Positions 1 to 60,547 of a stretch of DNA of 64,000 nucleotides are shown piece by piece. The DNA lies in NCBI RefSeq assembly GCF_965641715.1, contig NZ_OZ282453.1; one strand, written 5' to 3'. The stretch comes from Escherichia coli (GTDB lineage: Bacteria; Pseudomonadota; Gammaproteobacteria; Enterobacterales; Enterobacteriaceae). Within the stretch, counting starts at the first letter, position 1. Every line of letters starts with the position of its first letter. The notes beneath the pieces were generated by a model. That model had not been told where the DNA came from. It saw only the letters and a list, made by a program, of their open reading frames with translations, and did no database searches. A program made the position numbers and the translations under genes.

Positions 1-243
1 TTTTCAACATAAAGCTGGCGACACATAATGCGATGCCCACGACAGCGACGAGTTGCGTGACGGCTTGTAAAGGCCCCGCCTGGCGACGGGTCTGGCGCAG
101 ACGCAACAAAAGCAGCAACGCCATTAGCGGTAACAGCCAGTGCAGGCCGTTATGCGCTAAGCCAAACCAAATCACAAACGGCCAGGCGAGCAGCAATAAT
201 CCAGTCAGCAGCTTAATCATCGGTAGCGAGCGAATGCCCGACA
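1..243 (-). CDS. Membrane protein, C-terminally truncated by window edge (ATG at 243..241, reads MSGIRSLPMIKLLTGLLLLAWPFVIWF...); next gene after the tandem ACPs in the same operon
   Basis: Manual translation of minus strand; hydrophobic; starts 5 bp downstream of ACP stop; not in ORF track because it has no stop inside the window. Confidence 0.4.
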
Positions 244-248
244 TCAGA

Positions 249-500
249 TCAGGCTTCTTGTAGCAGGCGTTCTACAGCCTCGACGACATCCTGGACTGTA
301 CGCACGGCTTTAAACTCTTCCGGCTTGATTTTCTTACCGGTTTTCTTTTGCAGGTGCACAATCATGTCAACGGCGTCGATGCTGTCCAGTTCCAGATCTT
401 CGTACAGGCGCGCTTCAGGTTTGATGTCCTGCGGATCGATTTCAAACAGCTTAACCAGCAGGGCTGAGACTTCCTGATAGACGGTTTGTTGTTCTGTCAT
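249..500 (-). CDS. Acyl carrier protein (83 aa)
   Basis: ORF track; ACP-like size and LDSIDAVD phosphopantetheine-attachment motif. Confidence 0.8.
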   Translation of the reverse strand: MTEQQTVYQEVSALLVKLFEIDPQDIKPEARLYEDLELDSIDAVDMIVHLQKKTGKKIKPEEFKAVRTVQDVVEAVERLLQEA

Positions 501-511
501 GATGGCTTTCC

Positions 512-769
512 TCAGGCACGTTGCGCAGCAATGAAAGAGGCCAGAGTGGCGACGGAGAAAAAGTGCTGACGCATCTCTTCGCTTTCCGCAGAGAGCACGA
601 TGCCGTACTCATTTTTTACTGCCAGTCCCAGTTCCAGGGCATCGATAGAGTCCAGCCCTAAACCGTCGCCAAACAGCGGCGCGTCGGTATCGATATCATC
701 AGGCGTCAACTCGTCCAGATTGAGGGTGCTGATGATGAGGTTTTTAATTTCCAGATAAAGCGCTTGCAT
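512..769 (-). CDS. Acyl carrier protein (85 aa), tandem with the first
   Basis: ORF track; GLDSIDALEL serine motif typical of ACPs. Confidence 0.8.
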   Translation of the reverse strand: MQALYLEIKNLIISTLNLDELTPDDIDTDAPLFGDGLGLDSIDALELGLAVKNEYGIVLSAESEEMRQHFFSVATLASFIAAQRA

Positions 770-1565
770 TATTTATTCCTGAGAGAGGTAAACAACCTTG
801 TTGTAATTGAAGCAAAAGATGCCGGTTTAACTGCCTTGCTGCCAGCGCCGGTTCTTGTGAAGTTGCATCGTAAAATTTATTGATTTCAACCCGACCATGG
901 ACTGCAACCGTAAAAAACGGCCGGTCAGGTGGAACGTCATACCATTTACTTTGTTTATCCAGCAGATGCTCGCTACAGCCGATCGTCACGATGCGTAAAT
1001 CGCTGGCACAGCGCACGGCAATATTCGCCGCCCCGCGCTGCAGCGTCATTTTTTCACCGGGCTTCGTTCGCGTGCCTTCGGGGAAAATCAGGATAGTGTC
1101 ACCCTGTGCCAGTCGCTGTTGGCAGCGGGGTAACAGGGTTTCAGCTTCGCTGTTGATTAAATAATCTGCCGCCCGCACGACGCCGCCAAGAAAAGGATTT
1201 TTTAACAGCGCGCTTTTCACCAGGCAGTCAGTTTCTGGCATGACTGACGCCAGCAGCACGTAATCGATCAGCGTGGGATGATTGGCTACGACGAGGCAAC
1301 CGCGTTCCTGACGTAAAATTTCAGCGCCATCAATACGATAATCCAGCACGCCAAGCCCTTTCGCGACAGTTAAAAACAGGCGAAAACTGGCGGCAATGCT
1401 GCGACGCGCCAAACGACGGCGGCGGGAAGTATCCCACACCAAAACTAACAATATGTTAAACCACACGACAGAAAGCAGCAGGCCGCCGAGACCAAACAGG
1501 GCAAAACATAACCCGGTCATGACCAGTCGCCAGGTCCACTCCAGACGTGACATCAGCTTACTCAT
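744..1565 (-). CDS. Lysophospholipid (PlsC-type) acyltransferase
   Basis: ORF 744..1583; N-terminal TM segments; HX4D-type motif VVANHPTLIDYVLL; alternative ATG at 1565 gives an ATGA overlap with the upstream stop. Confidence 0.75.
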   Translation of the reverse strand: MSKLMSRLEWTWRLVMTGLCFALFGLGGLLLSVVWFNILLVLVWDTSRRRRLARRSIAASFRLFLTVAKGLGVLDYRIDGAEILRQERGCLVVANHPTLIDYVLLASVMPETDCLVKSALLKNPFLGGVVRAADYLINSEAETLLPRCQQRLAQGDTILIFPEGTRTKPGEKMTLQRGAANIAVRCASDLRIVTIGCSEHLLDKQSKWYDVPPDRPFFTVAVHGRVEINKFYDATSQEPALAARQLNRHLLLQLQQGCLPLSGINNASALSGN

Positions 1566-2308
1566 CTGTGGCTCCAGCGCCATTGCACGCGCTCGCCAGG
1601 CAGTGAAAATGTGTCTACATTTTGTAAATAGTGCTGTAAAAACAACATGCTTTGCGGCAGTGTTGTTTCATTGCCCGCAATGGCTGACTGCGTTTCACAT
1701 TGCCAGTCATCGCCAGCTTCAATCACCAGCGCGACGGCGTACGGCCAGGTCGGCATTTCTGCAGGCAGTTGTGGGTGATAAAACTCGGGCAGAAAACCGT
1801 CAAAATCGACCATCAGCACGCGCTGGTATCCCGCTTGTAACAGGCTAAGCACTTCACACAAACCTTGCTGGAAAGTGTCGCGACCAGCAGAAAGCGATGA
1901 CGAAACGATCGGCTGTTTGGCCGCAATGGTCAGGTTACCCACGGAAGAGTTGTGTACTGAAAGTGCAAAGTCGGTCGGAGAAAGCGCCTGTTCGGTTGCC
2001 AGTGCATGAACAATGCGGTAATTGCGCTCCAGTTCGCCATGACGACTGGTATACAAAACGGCGTCTGGCTGATGGCGGCGTAGCATTGCCAGACCGCATT
2101 CAACAGCCAGTTTGCTGCCTGAACTGAGGCGGCGGGCGGTCATCATTGGCAGTTCACTTAATTTTGCCAACGGCGCGGCAGGGTCAATCGCCCACGGCTG
2201 GCGCGACCATGCTTGCCATTGCTGCGCTTCGCTAAGTCCAGGCGCCAGTGCCTGCCAGTCGGTAATATTTAATGTAAATTTCATCAACGCGCGCCCGCGG
2301 TAAACCAA
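1562..2308 (-). CDS. Small ketosynthase-like protein, possible chain-length-factor-type subunit (248 aa)
   Basis: ORF track; size and operon position between a methyltransferase and acyltransferase/ACPs; domain call is by recollection of aryl-polyene clusters. Confidence 0.45.
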   Translation of the reverse strand: MVYRGRALMKFTLNITDWQALAPGLSEAQQWQAWSRQPWAIDPAAPLAKLSELPMMTARRLSSGSKLAVECGLAMLRRHQPDAVLYTSRHGELERNYRIVHALATEQALSPTDFALSVHNSSVGNLTIAAKQPIVSSSLSAGRDTFQQGLCEVLSLLQAGYQRVLMVDFDGFLPEFYHPQLPAEMPTWPYAVALVIEAGDDWQCETQSAIAGNETTLPQSMLFLQHYLQNVDTFSLPGERVQWRWSHR

Positions 2309-2324
2309 AATTATTAAGTGACGA

Positions 2325-3392
2325 TTATTTCTTTTGGCATATCAAAAGTGTATGCCCAACGCCTAAATTATCGTGGCGCTCTGCTACCTGGAATCCTGCT
2401 TTATTCAGATAGTCGTAAAATTTCTCTGCACTATAGAAACGGCTGTTACCGTTTGCCATGCAGGTAAAATAAAGTGAGGACGCGTTCAGGCTAAACGATG
2501 CTGCTTCAAACCGCTGCGCATCCCAGAACAACTCCATGATGCAAACTTTTGCGCCAGGCTTCATTACGCTGGCAATTTTGCTGAGTATGCTAATTATTTG
2601 TTCGGGTGAAAAACAGTCTAAAAATTGGCTCATCCACCAGATATCAGCCTCGCCCGGTAATGGGGCATCGCTTAGCATATCCACCGCATGGAAATCTATG
2701 CGATCAGAAAAACCTGCATTCGCGATATTTTCTTTCGCTAGTACGATTTGTTGTGGCAGATCTAATAACGTCACGGCGATGTTTTCATTGTATTTGCAGC
2801 AACGCAAAGCCCACTTACCCGTATTACCGCCTACATCGTACAATGTTGTGGGGTTGTTGGCGAATACATAAGGCAGTGCGGCGTTAAATGCGCCATCTGA
2901 ATAGTAATGATCAAACGCAAACCAGCTTTCACGAGCGGCGTCTGGTAATTGCGAAAGTGCCGGATATATCGTCGACCAGTCGCCAAATACTTTTAACCCG
3001 GAAGGTTTTCCTTCATTGAGTGAATCGGCGAGGAAGAAGAGCCCCTGGTAACAGACATCCTGGGTGAAATCCATATTCACGCGAGTCATAGTGTCATGCA
3101 GGAGGTAATGACCGATTTTCGCCAGGTAATAAATTCCCTCTTTACAGGTAATAATTCGCCCGCTTAAGCCCATATCTAACAGAACGCTGGCAGCATATTC
3201 GTTGATATGGCTATGTTCGGTGATATCAGCCAGCGTTGCGCCATGTTTGCCTTGCCGATCCAGATATGAAAGTACACCCGCATTACGTAGGCAGAGTGCT
3301 GTTTGAAAAAGCATAGGGGCAAAGGCAATGCGTTGAGCTTCGGTAATCGCATCCAGTGCGCTAAGAGAATCCTGTTCGTACATGTTGGGCAC
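2325..3392 (-). CDS. Class I SAM-dependent O-methyltransferase
   Basis: ORF track; glycine-rich SAM-binding motif LYDVGGNTGKWA and acidic LLDLP motif. Confidence 0.8.
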   Translation of the reverse strand: MPNMYEQDSLSALDAITEAQRIAFAPMLFQTALCLRNAGVLSYLDRQGKHGATLADITEHSHINEYAASVLLDMGLSGRIITCKEGIYYLAKIGHYLLHDTMTRVNMDFTQDVCYQGLFFLADSLNEGKPSGLKVFGDWSTIYPALSQLPDAARESWFAFDHYYSDGAFNAALPYVFANNPTTLYDVGGNTGKWALRCCKYNENIAVTLLDLPQQIVLAKENIANAGFSDRIDFHAVDMLSDAPLPGEADIWWMSQFLDCFSPEQIISILSKIASVMKPGAKVCIMELFWDAQRFEAASFSLNASSLYFTCMANGNSRFYSAEKFYDYLNKAGFQVAERHDNLGVGHTLLICQKK

Positions 3393-3451
3393 AACCTGTT
3401 AAGAGGGAATTAAATTATTATCGGACCGCAACGGCCCGACTTTAGGAAGAA

Positions 3452-3829
3452 TTATAAATCTGCGCCCGCTGACAAATTCAGTTGAATATCTTTGTCGAGA
3501 TTGCGGACCCAGCGATTGTAGTTTTTATGAATTTGTCCGCCTGACGCTTGTAGGTTCTGGCTATTTTCATAATTGATATCGTAGCTGGATGCCGTGTAGT
3601 TAATGCGTATTTCCGCTGAATGATCGCGTGACTGTTGACGTGCTTTAATTATGCCTTGTCCGGCTTCGGACATAATCCATTTGCGTTCAACGCCAGCTTT
3701 CAGAATCGCTTTTTTCACTTGTTCCTGGGTATGACCAGCGCTGACGGTTGAGTGAACCTGATCAATTGGCGCAGTACGCGCGCAACCTGCTAAAGCACCC
3801 ACAACAGCAATAGCCGCAAACCATTTCAT
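3452..3829 (-). CDS. Predicted lipoprotein of unknown function
   Basis: ORF 3452..3841; internal start MKWFAAIAVVGALAGC gives a signal peptide with lipobox LAGC. Confidence 0.55.
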   Translation of the reverse strand: MKWFAAIAVVGALAGCARTAPIDQVHSTVSAGHTQEQVKKAILKAGVERKWIMSEAGQGIIKARQQSRDHSAEIRINYTASSYDINYENSQNLQASGGQIHKNYNRWVRNLDKDIQLNLSAGADL

Positions 3830-4159
3830 GTAATGTCTCATTAGAACCCCATTAAAGTATTGTTTTTACGAGTAAAGCAAGATTTAACTGTAATTGCTGG
3901 CATCACTATTCTTTATTTAGAGAAAAAATTACTTGTGAGATAAGTCAGTAAGTGCACATCAGAGTAAAAATCTCTGAAATGACTAAATTACTGCCAGCAG
4001 GGACCAACTATAAGTGAGTGAGAAAAATGAGGCAATAAAAATAACACAATGTTATCAGTGCATTCTTTGAGAAGGATTTAATCGCTATTCGGCGTTTATA
4101 TATATTTGACTTAAGGAATGGTTTTTTTAAATTAATTTTCTGAATAATGTTTCATCATT

Positions 4160-8394: not shown

Positions 8395-8525
8395 GGACTG
8401 TTACCCTAACCCTCTCCCCAGAGGGGCGAGTGGACCGATCGCACTCAATGTTGCTGCTTGAAACCGGTACGTAGGACGGATAAGGCGTTCACGCCGCATC
8501 CGGCAAGCAAGTGTAATGGAATACA
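8395..8525. repeat. REP-type intergenic palindromic repeats
   Basis: gtaggacggataaggcgttcacgccgcatccggcaagc and ccctctccccagaggggcgag palindromes. Confidence 0.55.
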
Positions 8526-17863: not shown

Positions 17864-18967
17864 ATGAACATAAAGGGTAAAGCGTTACTGGCAGGATGTA
17901 TCGCGCTGGCATTCAGCAATATGGCTCTGGCAGAAGATATTAAAGTCGCGGTCGTGGGCGCAATGTCCGGTCCGGTTGCGCAGTACGGTGACCAGGAGTT
18001 TACCGGCGCAGAGCAGGCGGTTGCGGATATCAACGCTAAAGGCGGCATTAAAGGCAACAAACTGCAAATCGTAAAATATGACGATGCCTGTGACCCGAAA
18101 CAGGCGGTTGCGGTGGCGAACAAAGTCGTTAACGACGGCATTAAATATGTGATTGGTCACCTCTGTTCTTCATCAACGCAGCCTGCGTCTGACATCTACG
18201 AAGACGAAGGCATTTTAATGATCACCCCAGCGGCAACCGCGCCGGAGCTGACCGCCCGTGGCTATCAGCTGATCCTGCGCACCACCGGCCTGGACTCCGA
18301 CCAGGGGCCGACGGCGGCGAAATATATTCTTGAGAAAGTGAAACCGCAGCGTATTGCTATCGTTCACGACAAACAGCAATACGGCGAAGGTCTGGCGCGA
18401 GCGGTGCAGGACGGCCTGAAGAAAGGCAATGCTAACGTGGTGTTCTTTGATGGTATCACCGCCGGGGAAAAAGATTTCTCAACGCTGGTGGCGCGTCTGA
18501 AAAAAGAGAATATCGACTTCGTTTACTACGGCGGTTATCACCCGGAAATGGGGCAAATCCTGCGTCAGGCACGCGCGGCAGGGCTGAAAACTCAGTTTAT
18601 GGGGCCGGAAGGTGTGGCTAACGTTTCGCTGTCTAACATTGCGGGCGAATCAGCGGAAGGGCTGCTGGTGACCAAGCCGAAGAACTACGATCAGGTTCCG
18701 GCGAACAAACCCATTGTTGACGCGATCAAAGCGAAAAAACAGGACCCAAGTGGCGCGTTCGTCTGGACCACCTACGCCGCGCTGCAATCTTTGCAGGCGG
18801 GCCTGAATCAGTCTGACGATCCGGCTGAGATCGCCAAATACCTGAAAGCGAACTCGGTTGATACCGTGATGGGTTCGCTGACGTGGGATGAGAAAGGTGA
18901 TCTGAAAGGCTTTGAGTTCGGTGTGTTTGACTGGCACGCCAACGGCACGGCGACCGATGCGAAGTAA
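17864..18967 (+). CDS. livJ: Leu/Ile/Val periplasmic binding protein
   Basis: ORF 17807..18967; start [23 protein letters not shown] (signal peptide). Confidence 0.95.
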
Positions 18968-18985
18968 CGGATAGATAAATGAAAA

Positions 18986-19019
18986 TGCCCGATGCGCTTA
19001 ACGTCCATCGGGTTTTTTT
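18986..19019 (+). terminator. Rho-independent terminator of livJ
   Basis: Hairpin gcccgatgcgcttaacgtccatcgggt plus T-run. Confidence 0.7.
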
Positions 19020-19116
19020 ATGTTTGTCGAAATGGTTGTAGAAAGATTAAACAATCCAGGATATGCTTATTGTACGGTGATGTGCCGTACATATTATACG
19101 GAGCAGGAGAGTTCAC

Positions 19117-19383
19117 ATGTCTGCTGTTAAAAAGCAGCGTATCGATCTGCGTTTAACTGACGATGACAAAAGTATGATTGAGGAAGCGGCAGCGATATCT
19201 AATCAGTCCGTCAGCCAATTTATGTTGAACAGCGCTTCGCAGCGGGCTGCGGAAGTGATTGAACAGCATCGGCGGGTGATCCTCAATGAGGAATCCTGGA
19301 CGCGGGTGATGGATGCGCTGAGTAATCCACCGTCACCAGGTGAAAAGCTAAAACGTGCGGTAAAACGTCTTCAGGGAATGTAA
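19117..19383 (+). CDS. ataR: DUF1778-type antitoxin of a GNAT toxin-antitoxin pair (88 aa)
   Basis: Small protein immediately upstream (6-bp gap) of a GNAT gene; symbol assigned from memory of the O157:H7 AtaR-AtaT locus. Confidence 0.7.
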   Translation: MSAVKKQRIDLRLTDDDKSMIEEAAAISNQSVSQFMLNSASQRAAEVIEQHRRVILNEESWTRVMDALSNPPSPGEKLKRAVKRLQGM

Positions 19384-19389
19384 TAATTT

Positions 19390-19917
19390 ATGGATGATCT
19401 GACGATAGAGATTCTGACCGATGATGCAGATTATGATCTACAGCGATTCGACTGCGGCGAGGAAGCGTTAAATCTCTTTCTGACGACACATCTCGTTCGT
19501 CAACATCGCAACAAAATTCTGCGAGCGTATATCCTTTGTCGCAACACTCCAGAACGTCAGGTGCTGGGATATTACACATTATCCGGCAGTTGTTTTGAAC
19601 GAGCCGCATTGCCCTCGAAATCGAAACAGAAAAAAATTCCCTACAAAAATATTCCCAGCGTCACTCTTGGGCGTCTGGCAATTGATCGTTCATTACAGGG
19701 GCAGGGATGGGGAGCAACACTGGTTGCTCATGCCATGAAAGTCGTCTGGTCAGCCTCTTTAGCGGTAGGTATTCACGGTCTTTTTGTCGAGGCGCTGAAT
19801 GAAAAAGCCCATACGTTTTATAAATCGCTGGGCTTTATCCCTTTAGTCGGGGAAAACGAAAATGCGTTATTTTTCCCAACCAAATCCATTGAACTGCTTT
19901 TTACACAGAGCGATTAA
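19390..19917 (+). CDS. ataT: GNAT-family tRNA-acetylating toxin (175 aa)
   Basis: GNAT acetyl-CoA motif region (QGQGWGATLV); paired with upstream antitoxin-like gene. Confidence 0.7.
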   Translation: MDDLTIEILTDDADYDLQRFDCGEEALNLFLTTHLVRQHRNKILRAYILCRNTPERQVLGYYTLSGSCFERAALPSKSKQKKIPYKNIPSVTLGRLAIDRSLQGQGWGATLVAHAMKVVWSASLAVGIHGLFVEALNEKAHTFYKSLGFIPLVGENENALFFPTKSIELLFTQSD

Positions 19918-20297
19918 CGCTTCTCCCAGCCGCCCTGTTGTGCCGTAAATCCCAGTGCCTGCATAAACGCCGTCATCACACCGCGATCTTCCACGCCTGC
20001 ATCCGCCATCCACCAGCATGAAACGCCAGGATTGTTACGCAAAACCTCTTCCAGCAGATATTGCCCCACACCGCGACGTCGAGTGACTTCCCGCACGCGC
20101 AGGGAATCCAGTGCCCCCTCGGTGCCGCTTAAGGTTACCCGCACGGCAGCAAGCAGGCGCTCGTTAAAACGCGCGGCGTAGATACGGTGGTTATCGTCAA
20201 CCTGTAACGAGGAAGGGGAATACTCCGGCCAGATCTTTTGCAGGTCAATCCGGTCCTGGTCGCTAAATTTTTCTAATCGAATGATGGTCAGCTTCAT
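19914..20297 (-). CDS. panM: PanD maturation factor (GNAT fold)
   Basis: 127 aa, same length as K-12 PanZ/PanM; synteny between livJ and livK. Confidence 0.85.
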   Translation of the reverse strand: MKLTIIRLEKFSDQDRIDLQKIWPEYSPSSLQVDDNHRIYAARFNERLLAAVRVTLSGTEGALDSLRVREVTRRRGVGQYLLEEVLRNNPGVSCWWMADAGVEDRGVMTAFMQALGFTAQQGGWEKR

Positions 20298-20720
20298 GGG
20301 TAACCCGTGTAAATCACAAAAGTGGAACCAGTGTAGCGAAATAATTTAATCGGAGGCTTTCTCTTTTTTATTTCTTTTGGCAGGTGATTAATTTTTTAAC
20401 AGCAATAATTACAAAGTTAAAACATTAGAGAATGAAAAATGTCCAGCATAATCCCCTGAATGGTAGTGAATTATTCCGCCCTTTGTGCCGTTATTTTATG
20501 CTGACAAAGGCACCTTTTTCTGTTTATCTATCAATAAATTCAGAATATTATCTGTTCTTAATCGACTGAAAAATAGGGATTTTAATCGCTATTATCACAA
20601 AATACTGCGCTAAACCCTTAATCAAACAGGCAAAAACAGTGCAGTATAAAAAAAGAACAGTCTGATTTGTTAACACATAAGAACAAAGCAACACAACATC
20701 ACGAATGGGGATTTTTGACT

Positions 20721-35295: not shown

Positions 35296-36470
35296 TTTGT
35301 GGGTTCCATAATATTTTTCATGGGAGGATAAATTGAGCCAGATGGAATGGCCCAGGGAGTGATTTTGCTTTCACCTACTAATATTCCCTTAGCTATTCGT
35401 GATTGCATGTTAGTAAAAACTTTATGATATGGTTCGTTTTCGATTAATACTAAATTTTCGAAATCATTAGTACCACCATCATCTAGAGATAGTTTATGGT
35501 GAACATTATAATTTAGAGGAACATAGCCCTTTCTCATTCTTAAAAGGTCTTCGGTGTTGAATCTTCCAGATGCTTCGGAGGTTTTTGCAAGTTTGATAAG
35601 AAAATTTTTTCTTACAGTTTTGTTAAACTCCTTTCGTAAGTTAGCTAAGTCTTTTGAAGGTCTCTTAATGTATATTATTTATATTATGTCTATGCCATCA
35701 AGAAGTTTTTGTTGATCTCTAAGTTTGCCTAAGTAACTATTTATTTCTGTATATGTATCAACTTTAGAACGCTTTGTTAAAAGAATAGATGCTGTTGCTA
35801 TCGCTATGCCCGCTGTTTTTTCATTTAGTATTTGATCATAGCCTTTGATTGCATCTCCACCCAGTTTTTCCGCAGTATCTCTGAATCCTTCAATGTTCCC
35901 ATTGTATACGCCACCAGCAGCAAGTAGCCTGCCAACAGCTTTGCTGTTTAACGTTTTGAAACGATTATTTGTTTGGTTTTTTGAATTTGGTAAAAACAAA
36001 CGGTTATAATTTTCAGGGAGTGCCAAATAGCTGAACTCGGTATTTGCGATAAGATGTTGACAGAGGATAAATTCATAACTAACAGTTATTGTTTCTGTAT
36101 CCAGTTGATTTTGAATGATCTGATGATGAATAGCCGATAAAAAAGCGCCTCTTAGTTGTGTATAATAATACTTTTCCCATCTACCAAATCTATTGATTCT
36201 ATAAAAGTCAAATTTCATAAATAATTGCTCATTATTGTTAATGGAATTAATAAGTAATGGAGTGCTTTTATCAATTAATTTACAAAATGTCATAGCCTGT
36301 AACTGTGAACCAAGCCCCGTATTAGTAATTCTATTTTCGAGTGAGAATGTAAATATTTCATTCTCATGCCCGCTCTGCCAGCGATTACCTATAGATTCAG
36401 TAGTCCCACAACCTGCGGAGATGCTTCCTTGTTGTTCTCCCGTTACTGTCAGATAAACAATATTACTCAT
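35292..36470 (-). pseudogene. yhhZ: Hcp-domain protein fused to a C-terminal HNH nuclease toxin (yhhZ-like), interrupted by one in-frame TAA at 35679..35681
   Basis: 263-aa ORF with Hcp-like N-terminus; same frame continues after the single stop through 47 codons into the 81-aa HNH ORF (NVHHKLSLDDGGTNDFENLVLIENEPYH); 392 codons in total. Confidence 0.65.
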
Positions 36471-36706
36471 CCCTGAAAAGTCCTTTTATGGCATGCTATT
36501 TTATCAATGGCACTATTATGCTTGTTAATTGTTATTTATTTACTCCAGGAAATTGTAGGCGTATATATTAAAAAATAAAATATTACACTTTAGGAAGTAA
36601 TTATGAGGTAAGTCTCAATATATTTATTGGGAAAATAAATACATTAAAGGAAGGTATGCCGATTTTGAATGACACCCTTTTTCCATCTCAGAAAAAGGGC
36701 ACTATT

Positions 36707-42670: not shown

Positions 42671-42752
42671 TCTTCATCTTTTTGATCTCTCTCGCAAATT
42701 TACCTGCAAATAATCCGTTCTAATCACTGCCTAAAGATCGCAGGAGATAAAG

Positions 42753-44849
42753 ATGGAAAAGCACGCAGCTGAATTGCTTTTACAGCGGATGTTAGGAAAT
42801 ACCACCGCTACTTTCAGGGAAGGGCAATGGGAAGCCATAGACGCGGTGGTGAACCAACGGCGAAAACTGCTGGTTGTCCAACGCACTGGCTGGGGGAAAA
42901 GTGCTGTGTACTTCATCGCCAGTAAAATCTTCCGCGATCGCGGCGCTGGCCCGACAATTATCATCTCTCCTTTGCTTGCCCTGATGCGTAACCAGGTTGC
43001 CGCCGCTGAACGGTTAGGTATTACGGCTGAAACGTTGAATTCTACAAACAGAGAAGAATGGCAGCGCATTAGCGATAAGTTGCTGCAAGGTGAGGTCGAT
43101 TGCTTGCTGGTTTCCCCGGAACGTTTGGCAAACCAGGACTTTATCGAAACGGTTTTATATCCTATAGCCGATCGTATTGGCTTGCTTGTGGTCGACGAGG
43201 CGCACTGCATCTCTGATTGGGGCCACGATTTTCGCCCGGATTACCGACGTATATTAGATATTTTGCGCCAACTACCTGCGAATACCCCTGTTCTGGGTAC
43301 AACCGCGACAGCGAATAACCGTGTCGTTGAGGATATCCGTCAGCAATTGGGTGACATTGTGATTCAGCGTGGAACGCTGGCTCGCGAAAGTTTGGCGCTT
43401 GATGCCTTAGTCTTAGGTGAACAGTCATCCCGTCTGGCATGGTTAGCAACGGTTATCCCTCAGTTTTCCAAATCGGGAATTGTTTATACCCTGACTACTC
43501 GCGATGCCGAACTTGTCGCCGAGTGGTTAAGGAAAAATGGTATCAGTGCATTTGCTTACTACAGCGGCGTGACTTGCGAAGGCGCGGAAGATTCTAATAC
43601 TGCCAGGGAATATCTGGAGCAGGCGTTGCTGGCAAATAAAATTAAAGTGCTGGTTGCGACAACGGCGCTGGGAATGGGCTTTGACAAACCGGATTTGGGG
43701 TTTGTTATTCATTACCAGATGCCAGGTTCGATAGTTGGTTACTACCAACAGGTGGGGCGTGCCGGTCGCGGTATCGATTCTGCTGTTGGCATACTGCTTT
43801 GCGGCAGTGAAGACCGTGCTATTCATAAATTCTTCCGTGAAAGCGCCTTTCCTGCGGAGGCGCAAATTCATGAAATACTCAACGTACTTAGCGTGAATGA
43901 CGGTCTTACCTTACGAGGCATTGAACAACGGACGAATCTCCGTTATGGGCAAATAGAAAAAGCACTGAAATTATTGGTAGCTGAAAATCCATCGCCTGTG
44001 GTGTATACCGAGAAATTATGGCGCAGAACAATTGTCAGTTTTTCTCCTGACCATGAACGAATTAACCATTTGATGAATCAGAGAAAAAGTGAGCTGGCAG
44101 ACGTTGAAAGCTATATCACGACCAAGGAGTGCAAAATGCAATTTCTGCGCCGCGCACTCGATGAGCCAGGTGCCGAACATTGTGGTAAATGTAGCAGTTG
44201 TCTTCAGCATCCGTTGTTGTCGCCCGACATTGATAGCGGCTTACTCCATGCGGCAAACTTATTTATTAAACACGCTGACCTGCCATTAAATCTCAATAAA
44301 CAGGTGGCAGCTGGGGCTTTTACGCAATACGGATTTAAAGGGAACTTGCCTGCGAGTTTACAAGGATCTACGGGGCGAATCCTTTCTCGTTGGGGAGATT
44401 CCGGGTGGGGAAAGCAGGTAGCACAGGAGAAAAAAACGGGGCGATTCAGTGATGAACTGGTGGAGGCATGTGCGGAAATGGTTCGCCAACGCTGGAATCC
44501 GCATCCTGAACCAACCTGGGTATGCTGCGTTCCTTCATTAAAGCACCTCGACCTGGTTCCTGATTTTGCCCGGCGACTGGCGGCGAAACTTGGCTTACCT
44601 TTTATTGATGCCATTGAAAAAGTCGTGGACAATCCACCGCAGAAAATGCAGCAAAACCGTTTCCACCAGTGTCAAAATCTCGACGGGGCGTTTGTGATTA
44701 CCCCTCCTTTGATGCCTGGTCCGGCGTTGCTGGTTGACGATATCGTGGATTCTGCATGGACGCTGACAGTTCTGACAGCACTGTTACGCCAGGCAGGTTG
44801 CCCGACGGTTTATCCTCTTGCCCTTGCTTCTACCTCGGTAAAAAATTGA
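42753..44849 (+). CDS. RecQ-family helicase fused to C-terminal phosphoribosyltransferase-like domain (698 aa); candidate toxin/effector
   Basis: RecQ motifs GWGKS, VVDEAHCISDWGHDFRPDY, GTTATA, QQVGRAGRG; C-terminal PRTase-type motif LLVDDIVDSAWTLT. Confidence 0.8.
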   Translation: MEKHAAELLLQRMLGNTTATFREGQWEAIDAVVNQRRKLLVVQRTGWGKSAVYFIASKIFRDRGAGPTIIISPLLALMRNQVAAAERLGITAETLNSTNREEWQRISDKLLQGEVDCLLVSPERLANQDFIETVLYPIADRIGLLVVDEAHCISDWGHDFRPDYRRILDILRQLPANTPVLGTTATANNRVVEDIRQQLGDIVIQRGTLARESLALDALVLGEQSSRLAWLATVIPQFSKSGIVYTLTTRDAELVAEWLRKNGISAFAYYSGVTCEGAEDSNTAREYLEQALLANKIKVLVATTALGMGFDKPDLGFVIHYQMPGSIVGYYQQVGRAGRGIDSAVGILLCGSEDRAIHKFFRESAFPAEAQIHEILNVLSVNDGLTLRGIEQRTNLRYGQIEKALKLLVAENPSPVVYTEKLWRRTIVSFSPDHERINHLMNQRKSELADVESYITTKECKMQFLRRALDEPGAEHCGKCSSCLQHPLLSPDIDSGLLHAANLFIKHADLPLNLNKQVAAGAFTQYGFKGNLPASLQGSTGRILSRWGDSGWGKQVAQEKKTGRFSDELVEACAEMVRQRWNPHPEPTWVCCVPSLKHLDLVPDFARRLAAKLGLPFIDAIEKVVDNPPQKMQQNRFHQCQNLDGAFVITPPLMPGPALLVDDIVDSAWTLTVLTALLRQAGCPTVYPLALASTSVKN

Positions 44850-46051
44850 TGAATCTTTCAGCCAATGCACAAGCAACTCTCCTGCTAACCAGCGATTTTT
44901 CTCGCGCGGCGGCGAGTGAGTATAAACCTCTTAGTAATAGTGAATGGGGGAAGTTTGCATTATGGCTGAAGCACCAACGTATCAGTCCCGCCGAGCTTCT
45001 GGTGCCGCAACCGCAAGAGAAACTTACAGGCTGGAGCGATCCGCGTATTTCTCAGGAGCGTATTCTTGGCTTGCTGGCGCGTGGTCATAGTCTGGCGTTG
45101 GCGGTAGATAAGTGGCAACGCGCCGGTTTATGGATCTTAACCCGCGGAGATGCTGATTATCCCGTTCGCTTGAAAAACCGATTGCGAACGGATGCACCTC
45201 CCGTTTTATTTGGCTGCGGGAATAAAGCATTACTGCAAGCGGAAGGTATGGCGATTGTTGGCTCGCGAGATGCTCCGACTGACGATTTGCGCTATACCCA
45301 ACAACTGGCCGCGAAACTGGCCCAACAGGGGATTTGCGTTATCTCTGGTGGTGCGCGAGGTATTGATGAATGTGCAATGGCGTCGGCACTGGAGGCCGGG
45401 GGAACTGCCGTTGGCGTATTAGCTGATAGCTTGTTAAAAACGAGTACGTTAGTGAAATGGCGTGAAGGGCTTATAGCAGGCAACCTGGTGTTGATTTCGC
45501 CGTTTTACCCAGAGGTACGTTTCACCGTCGGCAATGCGATGGCGCGAAATAAATATATTTATTGCCTTGCTGAAAGCGCAATGGTTGTACGTGCGGGAAT
45601 GACCGGTGGAACGATAACCGGGGCGATGGAGGCATTAAAACATCAGTGGCTGCCTGTGCAGGTTAAACCAAATCAGGATATGCAATCAGCCAATTCACGA
45701 TTAGTAGAAAATGGGGCGTCATGGAGTGCTGAACAGGCTGAGAATGTGACGATCAGACTGCCAGACGTTCCTGGGCTGATGTATGACAGAGCACTCCGTA
45801 ACGCTCAACCAGAACTGTTTTCGCTGCATGAAGATGACGCAAATTACGCAGTAATGCCCGCGTATACGCCTGTCGATTTTTATCAACTCTTTGTGGCGGA
45901 ACTGGCGATCCTTGCAAAGGAATCGATAAGTATTGAAAGGCTGGCGTCTTGTACTGGTTTAACCATCGAACAAATTAGTGTGTGGCTGAACCGCGCAGAA
46001 GAAGAGGGAAGGGTTATCCGATTGGGCGAAGGTCATTATCAGTTCAGGTAA
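44849..46051 (+). CDS. DprA/Smf-like (SLOG Rossmann) protein with C-terminal winged helix (400 aa); candidate antitoxin/partner
   Basis: ORF 44756..46051; ATG at 44849 overlaps upstream stop (TGATG); DprA-like GSRD and ISGGARGID motifs. Confidence 0.75.
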   Translation: MNLSANAQATLLLTSDFSRAAASEYKPLSNSEWGKFALWLKHQRISPAELLVPQPQEKLTGWSDPRISQERILGLLARGHSLALAVDKWQRAGLWILTRGDADYPVRLKNRLRTDAPPVLFGCGNKALLQAEGMAIVGSRDAPTDDLRYTQQLAAKLAQQGICVISGGARGIDECAMASALEAGGTAVGVLADSLLKTSTLVKWREGLIAGNLVLISPFYPEVRFTVGNAMARNKYIYCLAESAMVVRAGMTGGTITGAMEALKHQWLPVQVKPNQDMQSANSRLVENGASWSAEQAENVTIRLPDVPGLMYDRALRNAQPELFSLHEDDANYAVMPAYTPVDFYQLFVAELAILAKESISIERLASCTGLTIEQISVWLNRAEEEGRVIRLGEGHYQFR

Positions 46052-57742: not shown

Positions 57743-59260
57743 ATGGACAGAATGATGCCAAATAGAAAATGGATTTTGACCTCGCTGATAATGACTTTTT
57801 TCGGCATCCCCATACTGGCGCAATTTTTGGCAGCGGTTGTTGCCATGCTGGGTGTCGGGCTTACCGGTATTATTGAAGTTTGTAATATCCTTATCACGCC
57901 AACAATTTATCTTCTACTCAACGTCTTTATGCTGACGCTGGGGGCGATAATAATATTTTTCTCTGGTCGCGTGTGGGCCGGTGATAGCGCGCCAGAAAAC
58001 AGAGAAATAGCCGTCTGGCGGCAATGCTTTTTTCTCTTACCCGCGCTATTAACCTTGGTTGGCTGGATAATCACGCTACATCTGGCAGATTATCAATTTC
58101 GCCAGATGGGAGCTGGTTGGTTGGCAAACCTTATGCTTCCCTGGTTGGGCGTTTTTTTAGTCTCATTAGTGGGTGGTGAGTACTGGTGGATGGTCATTAT
58201 TCCCGTTGGGGCGCATATCAGTTTTTCGCTGGGATACGCCTGGCCGACCAGATATCCTTTATCCGGCACGTCCGGACTACGTTGCCGTAACTTACTCCTG
58301 TTTCTACTTATCTTACTTGGTATTGTCGCCGGGTATCAGGCCCATTTATATAAGCAGCAAAATCCTGGTGTCGGTGTACGCGAAAATATTGATATCTGGG
58401 CCTGGCGACCCGATAAACTCAATAATCGACTGACGCCGCTGCGTGGCAAACCGCAAATTCAGTTTAGGCAAAACTGGCCGCGAATCGATGGCGCCACGGC
58501 TGCGTACCCAATTTATGCTTCTGCATTTTATGCATTAAGTGTAATACCAGAGGATTTTCACGTTTGGGATTATCTGGAAAACTCTCGTACGCCAGAAGCA
58601 TATAACAAAATCGTTAAGGGCGATGCTGATATTATTTTCGTGGCGCAACCTTCCGGTGGGCAAAAAAAACGTGCAAAGGAATCTGGTGTCACTTTGGTGT
58701 ACACCCCCTTTGCCCGTGAAGCATTCGTTTTCATCGTCAATGCGGATAATCCGGTTAATTCCCTGACTGAACAACAGGTGCGTGACATTTTCAGTGGTGC
58801 AATTACCAATTGGCGTACTGTTGGCGGTAACGATCAGGAGATCCAGACCTGGCAGCGCCCGGAAGACTCTGGCAGCCAGACAGTGATGCAATCACAGGTC
58901 ATGAAAAATGTCCGCATGATCTCGCCGCAGGAAACGGAAGTGGCAAGCGTGATGGAGGGAATGATTAAAGTCGTTGCCGAATACCGTAATACAAACAACG
59001 CAATAGGCTATACCTTCCGCTATTACGCGACGCAAATGAATGCCGATAAAAATATAAAACTGCTAGCGATTAACGGTATTGCACCGACTGCGGAAAATAT
59101 TCGCAATGGCAAATATGCGTACATCGTCGATGCATTTATGGTGACGAGAGAAAATACAACGTCAGAAACACAAAAACTGGTCGAATGGTTTTTAACGCCG
59201 CAGGGGCAGAGTCTGGTAGAAGATGTGGGATATGTGCCGCTGTATCCAACAATGGAATAA
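57743..59260 (+). CDS. Polytopic membrane domain fused to PstS-like periplasmic binding domain (505 aa)
   Basis: N-terminal ~200 aa with several hydrophobic segments; C-terminal ~300 aa paralogous to the next gene. Confidence 0.7.
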   Translation: MDRMMPNRKWILTSLIMTFFGIPILAQFLAAVVAMLGVGLTGIIEVCNILITPTIYLLLNVFMLTLGAIIIFFSGRVWAGDSAPENREIAVWRQCFFLLPALLTLVGWIITLHLADYQFRQMGAGWLANLMLPWLGVFLVSLVGGEYWWMVIIPVGAHISFSLGYAWPTRYPLSGTSGLRCRNLLLFLLILLGIVAGYQAHLYKQQNPGVGVRENIDIWAWRPDKLNNRLTPLRGKPQIQFRQNWPRIDGATAAYPIYASAFYALSVIPEDFHVWDYLENSRTPEAYNKIVKGDADIIFVAQPSGGQKKRAKESGVTLVYTPFAREAFVFIVNADNPVNSLTEQQVRDIFSGAITNWRTVGGNDQEIQTWQRPEDSGSQTVMQSQVMKNVRMISPQETEVASVMEGMIKVVAEYRNTNNAIGYTFRYYATQMNADKNIKLLAINGIAPTAENIRNGKYAYIVDAFMVTRENTTSETQKLVEWFLTPQGQSLVEDVGYVPLYPTME

Positions 59261-59285
59261 CGCTCGAGAGAAAGGAATCAGCGAG

Positions 59286-60278
59286 ATGAATAAATTCACC
59301 GGTGTTTTACTATTAGGCACGGCGTTACTGGCGGGATGTGTCGACCGGGAAGGGTACTATAACAGCGTCAGGGAAGAAGAGAGCCATGGACTGACGTCTC
59401 TGCGGGGGCAACCTGCATTACGTTACAGCGATGATTGGTCAAGATGGCCGAGAGTGTACGGCGCTACAGCCTTATACCCGCTGTATGCCTCCGCGTATTA
59501 TAAATTAGTACCCGAGCCAAAAGATAAGGATCGAACCTCGCTGGCCTGGCAGGCGTATGGTTTGCAGCAAACCCGAACAGCTGAAGCCTACGATAGTCTG
59601 ATTAAAGGTTCCGCGACGGTTATTTTTGTTGCACAACCGTCGGAAGGACAGAAAAAACGTGCAGAAGAAGCGGGTGTTAAACTGAAATATACCGCTTTCG
59701 CCCGCGAAGCCTTTGTCTTTATCGTTGATATTAATAACCCGGTAAATTCTCTCTCTGAGCACCAGGTTAAAGATATTTTTAGCGGCAAAACTAGCCGCTG
59801 GAATAAAGTAGGTGGTAGTGACGAACATATAAAAGTCTGGCAGCGCCCTGAAGATTCTGGAAGCCAAACGATTATGAAGGGATTGGTTATGCAAGACACC
59901 CCAATGCTGCCAGCTAAAAAATCCACTGTGATTGATCTTATGGGCGGTTTAATTACTGAAGTTGCCGACTATCAAAACACGCCATCTTCCATTGGGTACA
60001 CCTTCCACTATTACGTCACTCGTATGAATGACAATATGCTCAAAATGCGCAAGCAGATTAAACTTTTGGCTATAAATGGCGTTGCGCCTACCGAGGAAAA
60101 TATCCGCAACGGCACTTATCCATACATTGTGGATGCCTATATGGTGACGCGTGAAAATCCCACGCCGGAAACGCAGAAATTTGTTGACTGGTTTATAAGT
60201 CAGCAGGGGCAACAGTTGGTAGAGGATGTGGGGTATGTGCCGCTGTATGAAGCATCCCCCGAATCATCAGGACAATAA
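59286..60278 (+). CDS. PstS-like periplasmic binding-protein lipoprotein (about 330 aa)
   Basis: ORF 59223..60278; start MNKFTGVLLLGTALLAGC (lipobox); about 60% identical to the C-terminal domain of the upstream gene. Confidence 0.7.
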   Translation: MNKFTGVLLLGTALLAGCVDREGYYNSVREEESHGLTSLRGQPALRYSDDWSRWPRVYGATALYPLYASAYYKLVPEPKDKDRTSLAWQAYGLQQTRTAEAYDSLIKGSATVIFVAQPSEGQKKRAEEAGVKLKYTAFAREAFVFIVDINNPVNSLSEHQVKDIFSGKTSRWNKVGGSDEHIKVWQRPEDSGSQTIMKGLVMQDTPMLPAKKSTVIDLMGGLITEVADYQNTPSSIGYTFHYYVTRMNDNMLKMRKQIKLLAINGVAPTEENIRNGTYPYIVDAYMVTRENPTPETQKFVDWFISQQGQQLVEDVGYVPLYEASPESSGQ

Positions 60279-60402
60279 TGATGAATATAATCAGACTTTA
60301 TATTTATCCGTTATTTCTCGGCTTTGTTATTGTGCCGTTGTTGGTGTGGCCGATGGTGGTTGCGCTGGCTGCTTGTATTATCGTTGACAAAGTGCACTTT
60401 GT

Positions 60403-60437
60403 TCATGCCTGATGCGGCGTGAACGCCTTATCAGGCC
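60403..60437. repeat. REP element
   Basis: gcctgatgcggcgtgaacgccttatcaggcctac. Confidence 0.7.
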
Positions 60438-60547
60438 TACAAAATCATGCAAATTCAATATATTGCATAAACCACGCATCAGGCAATTTTGTGTTTGTCA
60501 TCAGTCTCAGGCCAGATTGAAATCTGACCTGATCACCTTACGTTAAT

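Follow-up and report, generated by a model that had tools for sequence, protein, structure and literature searches.

The gene pair at positions 19,117–19,917 of the analysed stretch of Escherichia coli DNA (64,000 nt of contig NZ_OZ282453.1, referred to as the window) is, with a probability of about 0.95, an intact chromosomal AtaR-AtaT type II toxin-antitoxin operon of E. coli at its usual site, and no sequence evidence against this identity was found. The sequence, structure and mechanism of the AtaRT system present here have been described before, and so has its place in the genome. Few GNAT toxin-antitoxin systems are as well characterised as AtaRT, and crystal structures are available for the toxin and for the complex, as well as for the operator and tRNA complexes. 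The finding is of little consequence beyond correct annotation, and what the window adds is a natural pair of alleles, toxin Ser65 together with antitoxin Val82. Ser65 is apparently ancestral, and therefore no new biology is expected from this pair.

Identity and alleles of the gene pair

Both ORFs of the original prediction, an 88-aa frame at 19,117–19,383 and a 175-aa frame at 19,390–19,917, were recovered with exactly these coordinates in the six-frame ORF list. Both are on the plus strand with the antitoxin gene first, and they are separated by a gap of 6 nt (TAATTT, 19,384–19,389). The upstream gene, ataR, encodes a ribbon-helix-helix antitoxin of the DUF1778/TacA1 family in its Val82 allele, and the product matched Pfam family PF08681 (TacA1, formerly DUF1778) with a score of 89.6 bits (cut-off 21). 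The downstream gene, ataT, encodes a GNAT aminoacyl-tRNA N-acetyltransferase toxin in its Ser65 allele, in which GNAT acetyltransferase domains were recognised by Pfam. The architecture of tRNA-acetylating toxin-antitoxin systems, which had been proposed for an AtaRT-like pair, was borne out, and the pair is AtaR/AtaT itself.

In a sequence search of the PDB, AtaT aligned over its full length with 6GTS_A at 174 of 175 identical residues (E 8.7e-116), the sole difference being C65S, and AtaR was identical to 6AJM_C at 87 of 88 residues (E 2.4e-51), with A82V as the only substitution. The AtaR chains matched were those of 6AJM, 6GTO and 6GTS. For AtaT, the ranking below 6GTS continued with the further AtaT entries 6AJM, 7CHD, 6GTQ, 6GTP and 6AJN, and KacT came next. 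The suggested comparison with AtaT, ItaT and TacT accordingly returned a strong match to AtaT, with the other solved GNAT toxins at E-values of 6.7e-21 to 8.4e-5; these weaker matches are presumably of the TacT and ItaT types. Because of the near-identity to the AtaR and AtaT chains, as opposed to the far weaker matches to other GNAT toxins, the pair is assigned to AtaRT itself and not to AtaRT2.

The exact protein sequences are named AtaT and AtaR by NCBI, and they occur on 787 and on at least 1000 contigs, respectively. Among the NCBIfam HMMs there was no AtaR or AtaT model, and the only matches were sub-threshold ones to MobA, RelB and RimI, so the NCBI names evidently come from rules other than these HMMs. 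None of the PADLOC defence models matched AtaR or AtaT.

The codon context of Ser65 (codon 65 at 19,582–19,584) was found in 13 of the 1612 carrier complete E. coli genomes, and that of Val82 in 55 of 1608 carriers, and in five compared E. coli carrier loci S65 or V82 occurred, never both together. The AtaT proteins of E. albertii and E. ruysiae also have Ser65, as does a KacT-like toxin with 70% identity encoded by the phage-plasmid Cyrano, so the residue is evidently tolerated. Since the residue is shared by these three, Ser65 is probably the ancestral state, and Cys65 of the crystallised EHEC AtaT probably derived. Residue 82 of AtaR lies in the C-terminal toxin-binding segment, amino acids 44–88 being the fragment that was co-crystallised with AtaT in 6GTQ. 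Ser65 and Val82 are standing natural alleles.

Genomic site and the alternative allele

The operon is flanked by two core genes. On the left is livJ (17,864–18,967, plus strand; RefSeq mapping and Pfam Peripla_BP_6), the stop codon of which forms the left boundary of the cassette, and on the right is panM (panZ; 19,914–20,297, minus strand; RefSeq panM and PF12568 PanZ, E 1.5e-57), with livK and livH beyond it. The genes ataT and panM are convergent, and their stop codons overlap by 4 nt (TTAA, 19,914–19,917), with an identical overlap in all carriers examined. In carrier genomes, RefSeq labels ataR and ataT at the same livJ-panM site.

By megablast, the full stretch 18,700–20,400 was present in 1612 of the 5426 complete E. 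coli genomes (about 30%), and its flanks in 5424 of them. AtaRT in complete E. coli genomes was always chromosomal and in single copy, and on plasmids no AtaT allele with at least 80% identity was found, only KacT-like cousins. The closest complete genome in the cassette region was that of the baboon isolate PapM-32-1 (99.5%), when the other carriers among the matches listed reached at most 98.3%.

The cassette boundaries were set by an alignment of the window, a K-12-type strain and two carriers. The cassette extends from 18,968 to about 19,909 (plus strand), and its ca. 940 nt stand in place of a 187-nt REP-bearing spacer of the K-12 type, with a G+C content of 45.4% compared to 51.4% for the whole window. 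Homology to the K-12-type allele ends right after the livJ TAA, and resumes at CGATTAAC near the panM stop codon. Adjacency of livJ and panM in K-12, as given in the original prediction, was confirmed by the K-12-type strain, in which only the 187-nt spacer lies between the two genes. In a blastn search of this spacer for remnants of the cassette, no significant similarity was obtained (best E 0.21), and the spacer matched REP-like elements of the window at 8,471–8,505 and 60,396–60,446. In E. albertii-type and E. ruysiae-type contigs, too, the cassette was found between livJ and panM, with an ataT/panM overlap of 4 nt as here, and therefore loss or allelic replacement is equally possible. The claim that the pair had been inserted between livJ and panM thus stands for its location, but the direction of change is not established: in the alternative allele the site is not empty but filled by another spacer, which bears REP sequence, and two alternative fillings of one intergenic slot do not by themselves give a direction.

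Surroundings of the operon in the window

The window represents ordinary E. coli chromosome, which begins with an accessory lipid-synthesis-like cluster at the left edge and continues through yhhT, zntA and ftsYEX-rpoH to livJ. To the right of ataRT follow panM, livKHMGF, ugp, ggt, gntRKU, a RecQ-helicase/DprA-like pair, asd, glg, two PstS-family genes and glpD-glpEG.

Positions 1–3,830 (minus strand) contain the end of the accessory lipid/polyketide-like cluster, with tandem acyl carrier proteins (ACPs), a lysophospholipid acyltransferase (744–1,583), a ketosynthase chain-length factor and a methyltransferase. The tandem ACP ORFs reported at the left edge are real and were located at 249–500 and 512–769 on the minus strand. 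In the O145:H28 strain RM12581, the cluster continues to the left with an AMP-ligase, a FabZ-like dehydratase, a GT2 glycosyltransferase, a thioesterase and a LolA-like gene. The same strain has 20 annotated genes from ataR to the nearer ACP, which agrees in spirit with the earlier gene count between the pair and the tandem ACPs that had been set against O157:H7 locus tags. The whole left 16.7 kb of the window was found in 569 of the 5426 complete E. coli genomes. We take the left-edge cluster to resemble the O-island 138 or aryl-polyene type.

According to the annotation of close genomes, genes for a RecQ-family helicase and a DprA-like protein lie at ca. 42,700–46,050, between gntU and yhgN. 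This pair is presumably missing from the K-12 gene order and has the appearance of an inserted accessory element. Two adjacent genes for PstS-family phosphate-binding proteins, together with a small truncated ORF, are located between glgP and glpD at ca. 57,750–60,400, and a REP-like element is at 60,396–60,446. In one close genome, the region matching ca. 35,300–36,500 of the window, between yrhA and yhhY, includes a tssD gene (type VI secretion tube protein) that the annotation labels a pseudogene, with an internal stop in its reading frame.

Regulatory elements

A terminator-like hairpin follows livJ at 18,979–19,021 (plus strand), detected as an inverted repeat and by RNA folding, with arms at 18,979–18,994 and 19,006–19,021. 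Its G+C-rich stem (18,987–18,994/19,006–19,013) is followed by a run of seven T. The fold of 18,968–19,030 had an energy of −24.5 kcal/mol (z = −5.2), and none of 200 shuffled sequences folded as well. We read this hairpin as the putative terminator of livJ. A consensus scan of 18,800–20,500 returned no sigma-70 promoter and no terminator, including none between ataT and panM; the livJ hairpin was probably missed by the scan because of its interrupted stem and the 11-nt stretch between its arms.

Upstream of ataR, a perfect 7+7 nt palindrome, TGTACGG-N7-CCGTACA, is located at 19,071–19,091 (plus strand). This pattern occurs nowhere else in the window, and it was absent from 100 shuffled sequences. 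Its arms were the same in all of 11 carrier loci, which represent three Escherichia backgrounds, while the spacer had four forms (TGATGTG, TGACATA, TGATATG and TAGAATT), of which TGATGTG is present here and TGACATA in the allele of the cattle strain 120. From these features we infer that the palindrome is the operator of AtaR, bound as AtaR4-AtaT2. Invariant arms with a variable spacer would fit two ribbon-helix-helix dimers reading the arms, as in the AtaR4-AtaT2 and KacA4-KacT2 operator complexes (PMC8138530, PMC6698736).

Just after the palindrome there is a −10-like TATTAT at 19,092–19,097, and the ataRT promoter likely overlaps the palindrome; this assignment is based on position and on the palindrome, because the consensus scan gave no sigma-70 promoter. 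A strong Shine-Dalgarno-like AGGAG, read from the sequence, is located at 19,105–19,109 (plus strand), 7 nt before the ATG of ataR. A candidate third operator half-site, TATACGG at 19,095–19,101, was rejected because it is not kept in the alleles of the E. albertii and E. ruysiae types.

Functional residues and selection

All 19 residues linked to function in AtaT (PMC7595197) are kept in the toxin of the window. These are G108 and Y144 for acetyl-CoA binding and catalysis, F30, H34, R37, R40, N41, R71, S76, K77, S78, K79, K81, K82, Y85 and R95 for tRNA binding, and A26, L27 and L136 for the aminoacyl pocket, with the roles as assigned in the same study (PMC7595197). AtaR in turn keeps R8, D10 and R12, the DNA contacts defined for the 73%-identical KacA (PMC6698736).

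Substitution rates were estimated pairwise by the Nei-Gojobori method against the alleles from E. albertii-type and E. ruysiae-type contigs. For ataT, dN was 0.003–0.019 and dS 0.10–0.17, with dN/dS of about 0.02–0.12, and for ataR the respective values were 0.015–0.017, 0.07–0.18 and about 0.10–0.20. Such low between-species ratios (about 0.02–0.2 in all) indicate purifying selection on both genes.

Mechanism and alternative interpretations

The activity of AtaT as a toxin that acetylates charged tRNAs has been shown biochemically, structurally and in vivo (PMC7595197). Its substrates are Met-tRNAfMet and, more efficiently, the Gly-, Trp-, Tyr- and Phe-tRNAs; specificity for the initiator tRNA is no longer ascribed to AtaT, and the choice of substrate depends on G-C pairs in the lower acceptor stem together with the side chain (PMC7595197). 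Acetylation of these tRNAs therefore brings translation to a stop. AtaR prevents AtaT dimerisation and neutralises the toxin one to one, and the hexameric AtaR-AtaT complex represses the operon, with excess toxin lowering the affinity for the operator (PMC8138530). The system is generally assumed to be triggered when the antitoxin is degraded by proteases under stress (PMC7595197).

By analogy with these near-identical reference proteins, the AtaT of the window would acetylate charged tRNAs and halt protein synthesis, and the C-terminal part of AtaR would wrap around the toxin, blocking both its dimerisation and its activity. As part of an AtaT-AtaR4-AtaT hexamer, the ribbon-helix-helix at the N-terminus of AtaR is expected to bind the palindromic operator and to repress the operon, and excess toxin would loosen this repression. 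The two genes are probably co-transcribed from the promoter that overlaps the 19,071–19,091 palindrome, and the Ser65 toxin and Val82 antitoxin presumably behave like the reference proteins.

Identity with another GNAT toxin-antitoxin system, i.e. AtaRT2, ItaRT or TacAT, has a negligible probability. The DUF1778-GNAT architecture is common to all of these, but identity between AtaT2 and AtaT is only 29.2%, and AtaT2 is encoded elsewhere in Sakai, as ECs4261-4262 (PMC7470980), and the other solved GNAT toxins matched at E-values of 6.7e-21 to 8.4e-5 against 8.7e-116 for AtaT. The PDB matches of both proteins thus refute such an identity. A second DUF1778/GNAT pair of the AtaRT2 kind was sought in the window and was absent; in Sakai, the locus tags of ataRT (ECs4308-ECs4307) and AtaRT2 (ECs4261-4262) are about 46 genes apart (PMC7470980). 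It is also very improbable that the operon is a silent remnant, with genes intact and the toxin attenuated by C65S or the module never derepressed. Rarity of S65 (13 of 1612 complete E. coli genomes) would speak for such a state, as would the fact that the crystallised and assayed form has neither S65 nor V82 and that residue 82 is within the toxin-binding segment of AtaR. However, both reading frames are full length with all known functional residues kept, and between-species dN/dS is well below 1. The occurrence of Ser65 in other Escherichia and in a KacT-like homologue makes it probably ancestral and not a lesion, and the exact proteins recur on 787 (AtaT) and at least 1000 (AtaR) contigs.

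A main role of the GNAT protein in protein-lysine acetylation, or in phage defence by abortive infection, instead of tRNA-directed growth control, is considered unlikely. AtaT is reported to acetylate Lys206 of EspB and to enhance EHEC virulence (PMC7957018), and KacT-type relatives are carried by hundreds of plasmids and by phage-plasmids, a distribution typically seen for modules of maintenance or defence. Acetylation of aminoacyl-tRNA by AtaT is nevertheless established at the biochemical, structural and in vivo levels (PMC7595197), no PADLOC model matches either protein, and the presence of LEE and EspB in the strain is not visible from the window. Moreover, roles of this kind would add to the toxin-antitoxin mechanism and not replace it. 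Candidate roles of chromosomal AtaRT in the literature include tolerance of stress, stabilising the locus, and virulence via EspB acetylation (PMC7957018).

Possible exchange of the cassette and overlap with panM

Apart from the assignment as an intact AtaR-AtaT operon, the locus was considered with respect to its evolution. Compared with two E. albertii-type contigs, the cassette and its end (18,968–19,917) were 97–99% identical, whereas the adjoining livJ, panM and livK were 89–95% identical, and dS was 0.07–0.10 in ataR and ataT against 0.29–0.37 in livJ and panM. This contrast was absent for the E. ruysiae-type copy, and few loci were compared. At both flanking stop codons, the junctions of the cassette do not vary. 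Since the cassette is less diverged from the E. albertii-type copies than its flanks are, the comparison hints that it may have been exchanged between Escherichia species after their divergence, at the same fixed site.

The products of ataT and panM are both GNAT-fold proteins that bind acetyl-CoA, and PanM is an acetyl-CoA-sensing activator of PanD in CoA biosynthesis. With the convergent overlap of the two genes, antisense interference from ataRT on panM is possible. The combined proposal, in which ataRT is a fixed-site module swapped between Escherichia species and read-through over the overlap could also interfere with panM, is regarded as quite unlikely. If true, such interference would link CoA homeostasis to a toxin that consumes acetyl-CoA.

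Comparison with known systems

The closest known system is AtaRT of E. coli O157:H7 (PDB 6GTS, 6GTP, 6AJM, 7CHD), from which each protein of the window differs by one residue. In EHEC O157:H7, ataRT corresponds to Z4833-Z4832 in strain EDL933 (PMC7957018) and to ECs4308-ECs4307 in Sakai (PMC7470980). The likeness to this system extends to the gene order, the 6-nt gap, the livJ-panM site, the arms of the palindrome and the 4-nt overlap with the panM stop codon. The differences are Ser65 for Cys65 in AtaT and Val82 for Ala82 in AtaR, and a host strain that is not O157:H7.

KacA-KacT of Klebsiella pneumoniae (PDB 5XUN, 5ZGN) belongs to the same subfamily as AtaRT. KacT matched AtaT with E-values of 7.6e-74 (5XUN) and 2.1e-74 (5ZGN), and KacA matched AtaR with an E-value of 7e-38; the published identities are 67% for KacT to AtaT and 73% for KacA to AtaR (PMC6698736). 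The two systems are alike in having a hexameric repressor on a palindromic operator, with DNA contacts by R8, D10 and R12. KacT-like pairs are only about 69–70% identical to AtaT, and KacT-type genes of 60–80% identity were found on 563 plasmids and a few phage-plasmids such as Cyrano, whereas the AtaT allele of the window was found solely on chromosomes.

AtaRT2 of O157:H7, ItaRT of E. coli HS and TacAT1-3 of Salmonella are likewise pairs of a DUF1778/ribbon-helix-helix protein and a GNAT protein that acetylate aminoacyl-tRNAs (PMC7470980, PMC7367177). They are distant from AtaRT, with 29% identity for AtaT2 and PDB matches at E-values of 6.7e-21 to 8.4e-5. The tRNA preference is for Gly in AtaT2 and for Ile in ItaT, unlike that of AtaT, and these systems are located at other loci and are absent from the window, which carries AtaRT at its livJ-panM site.
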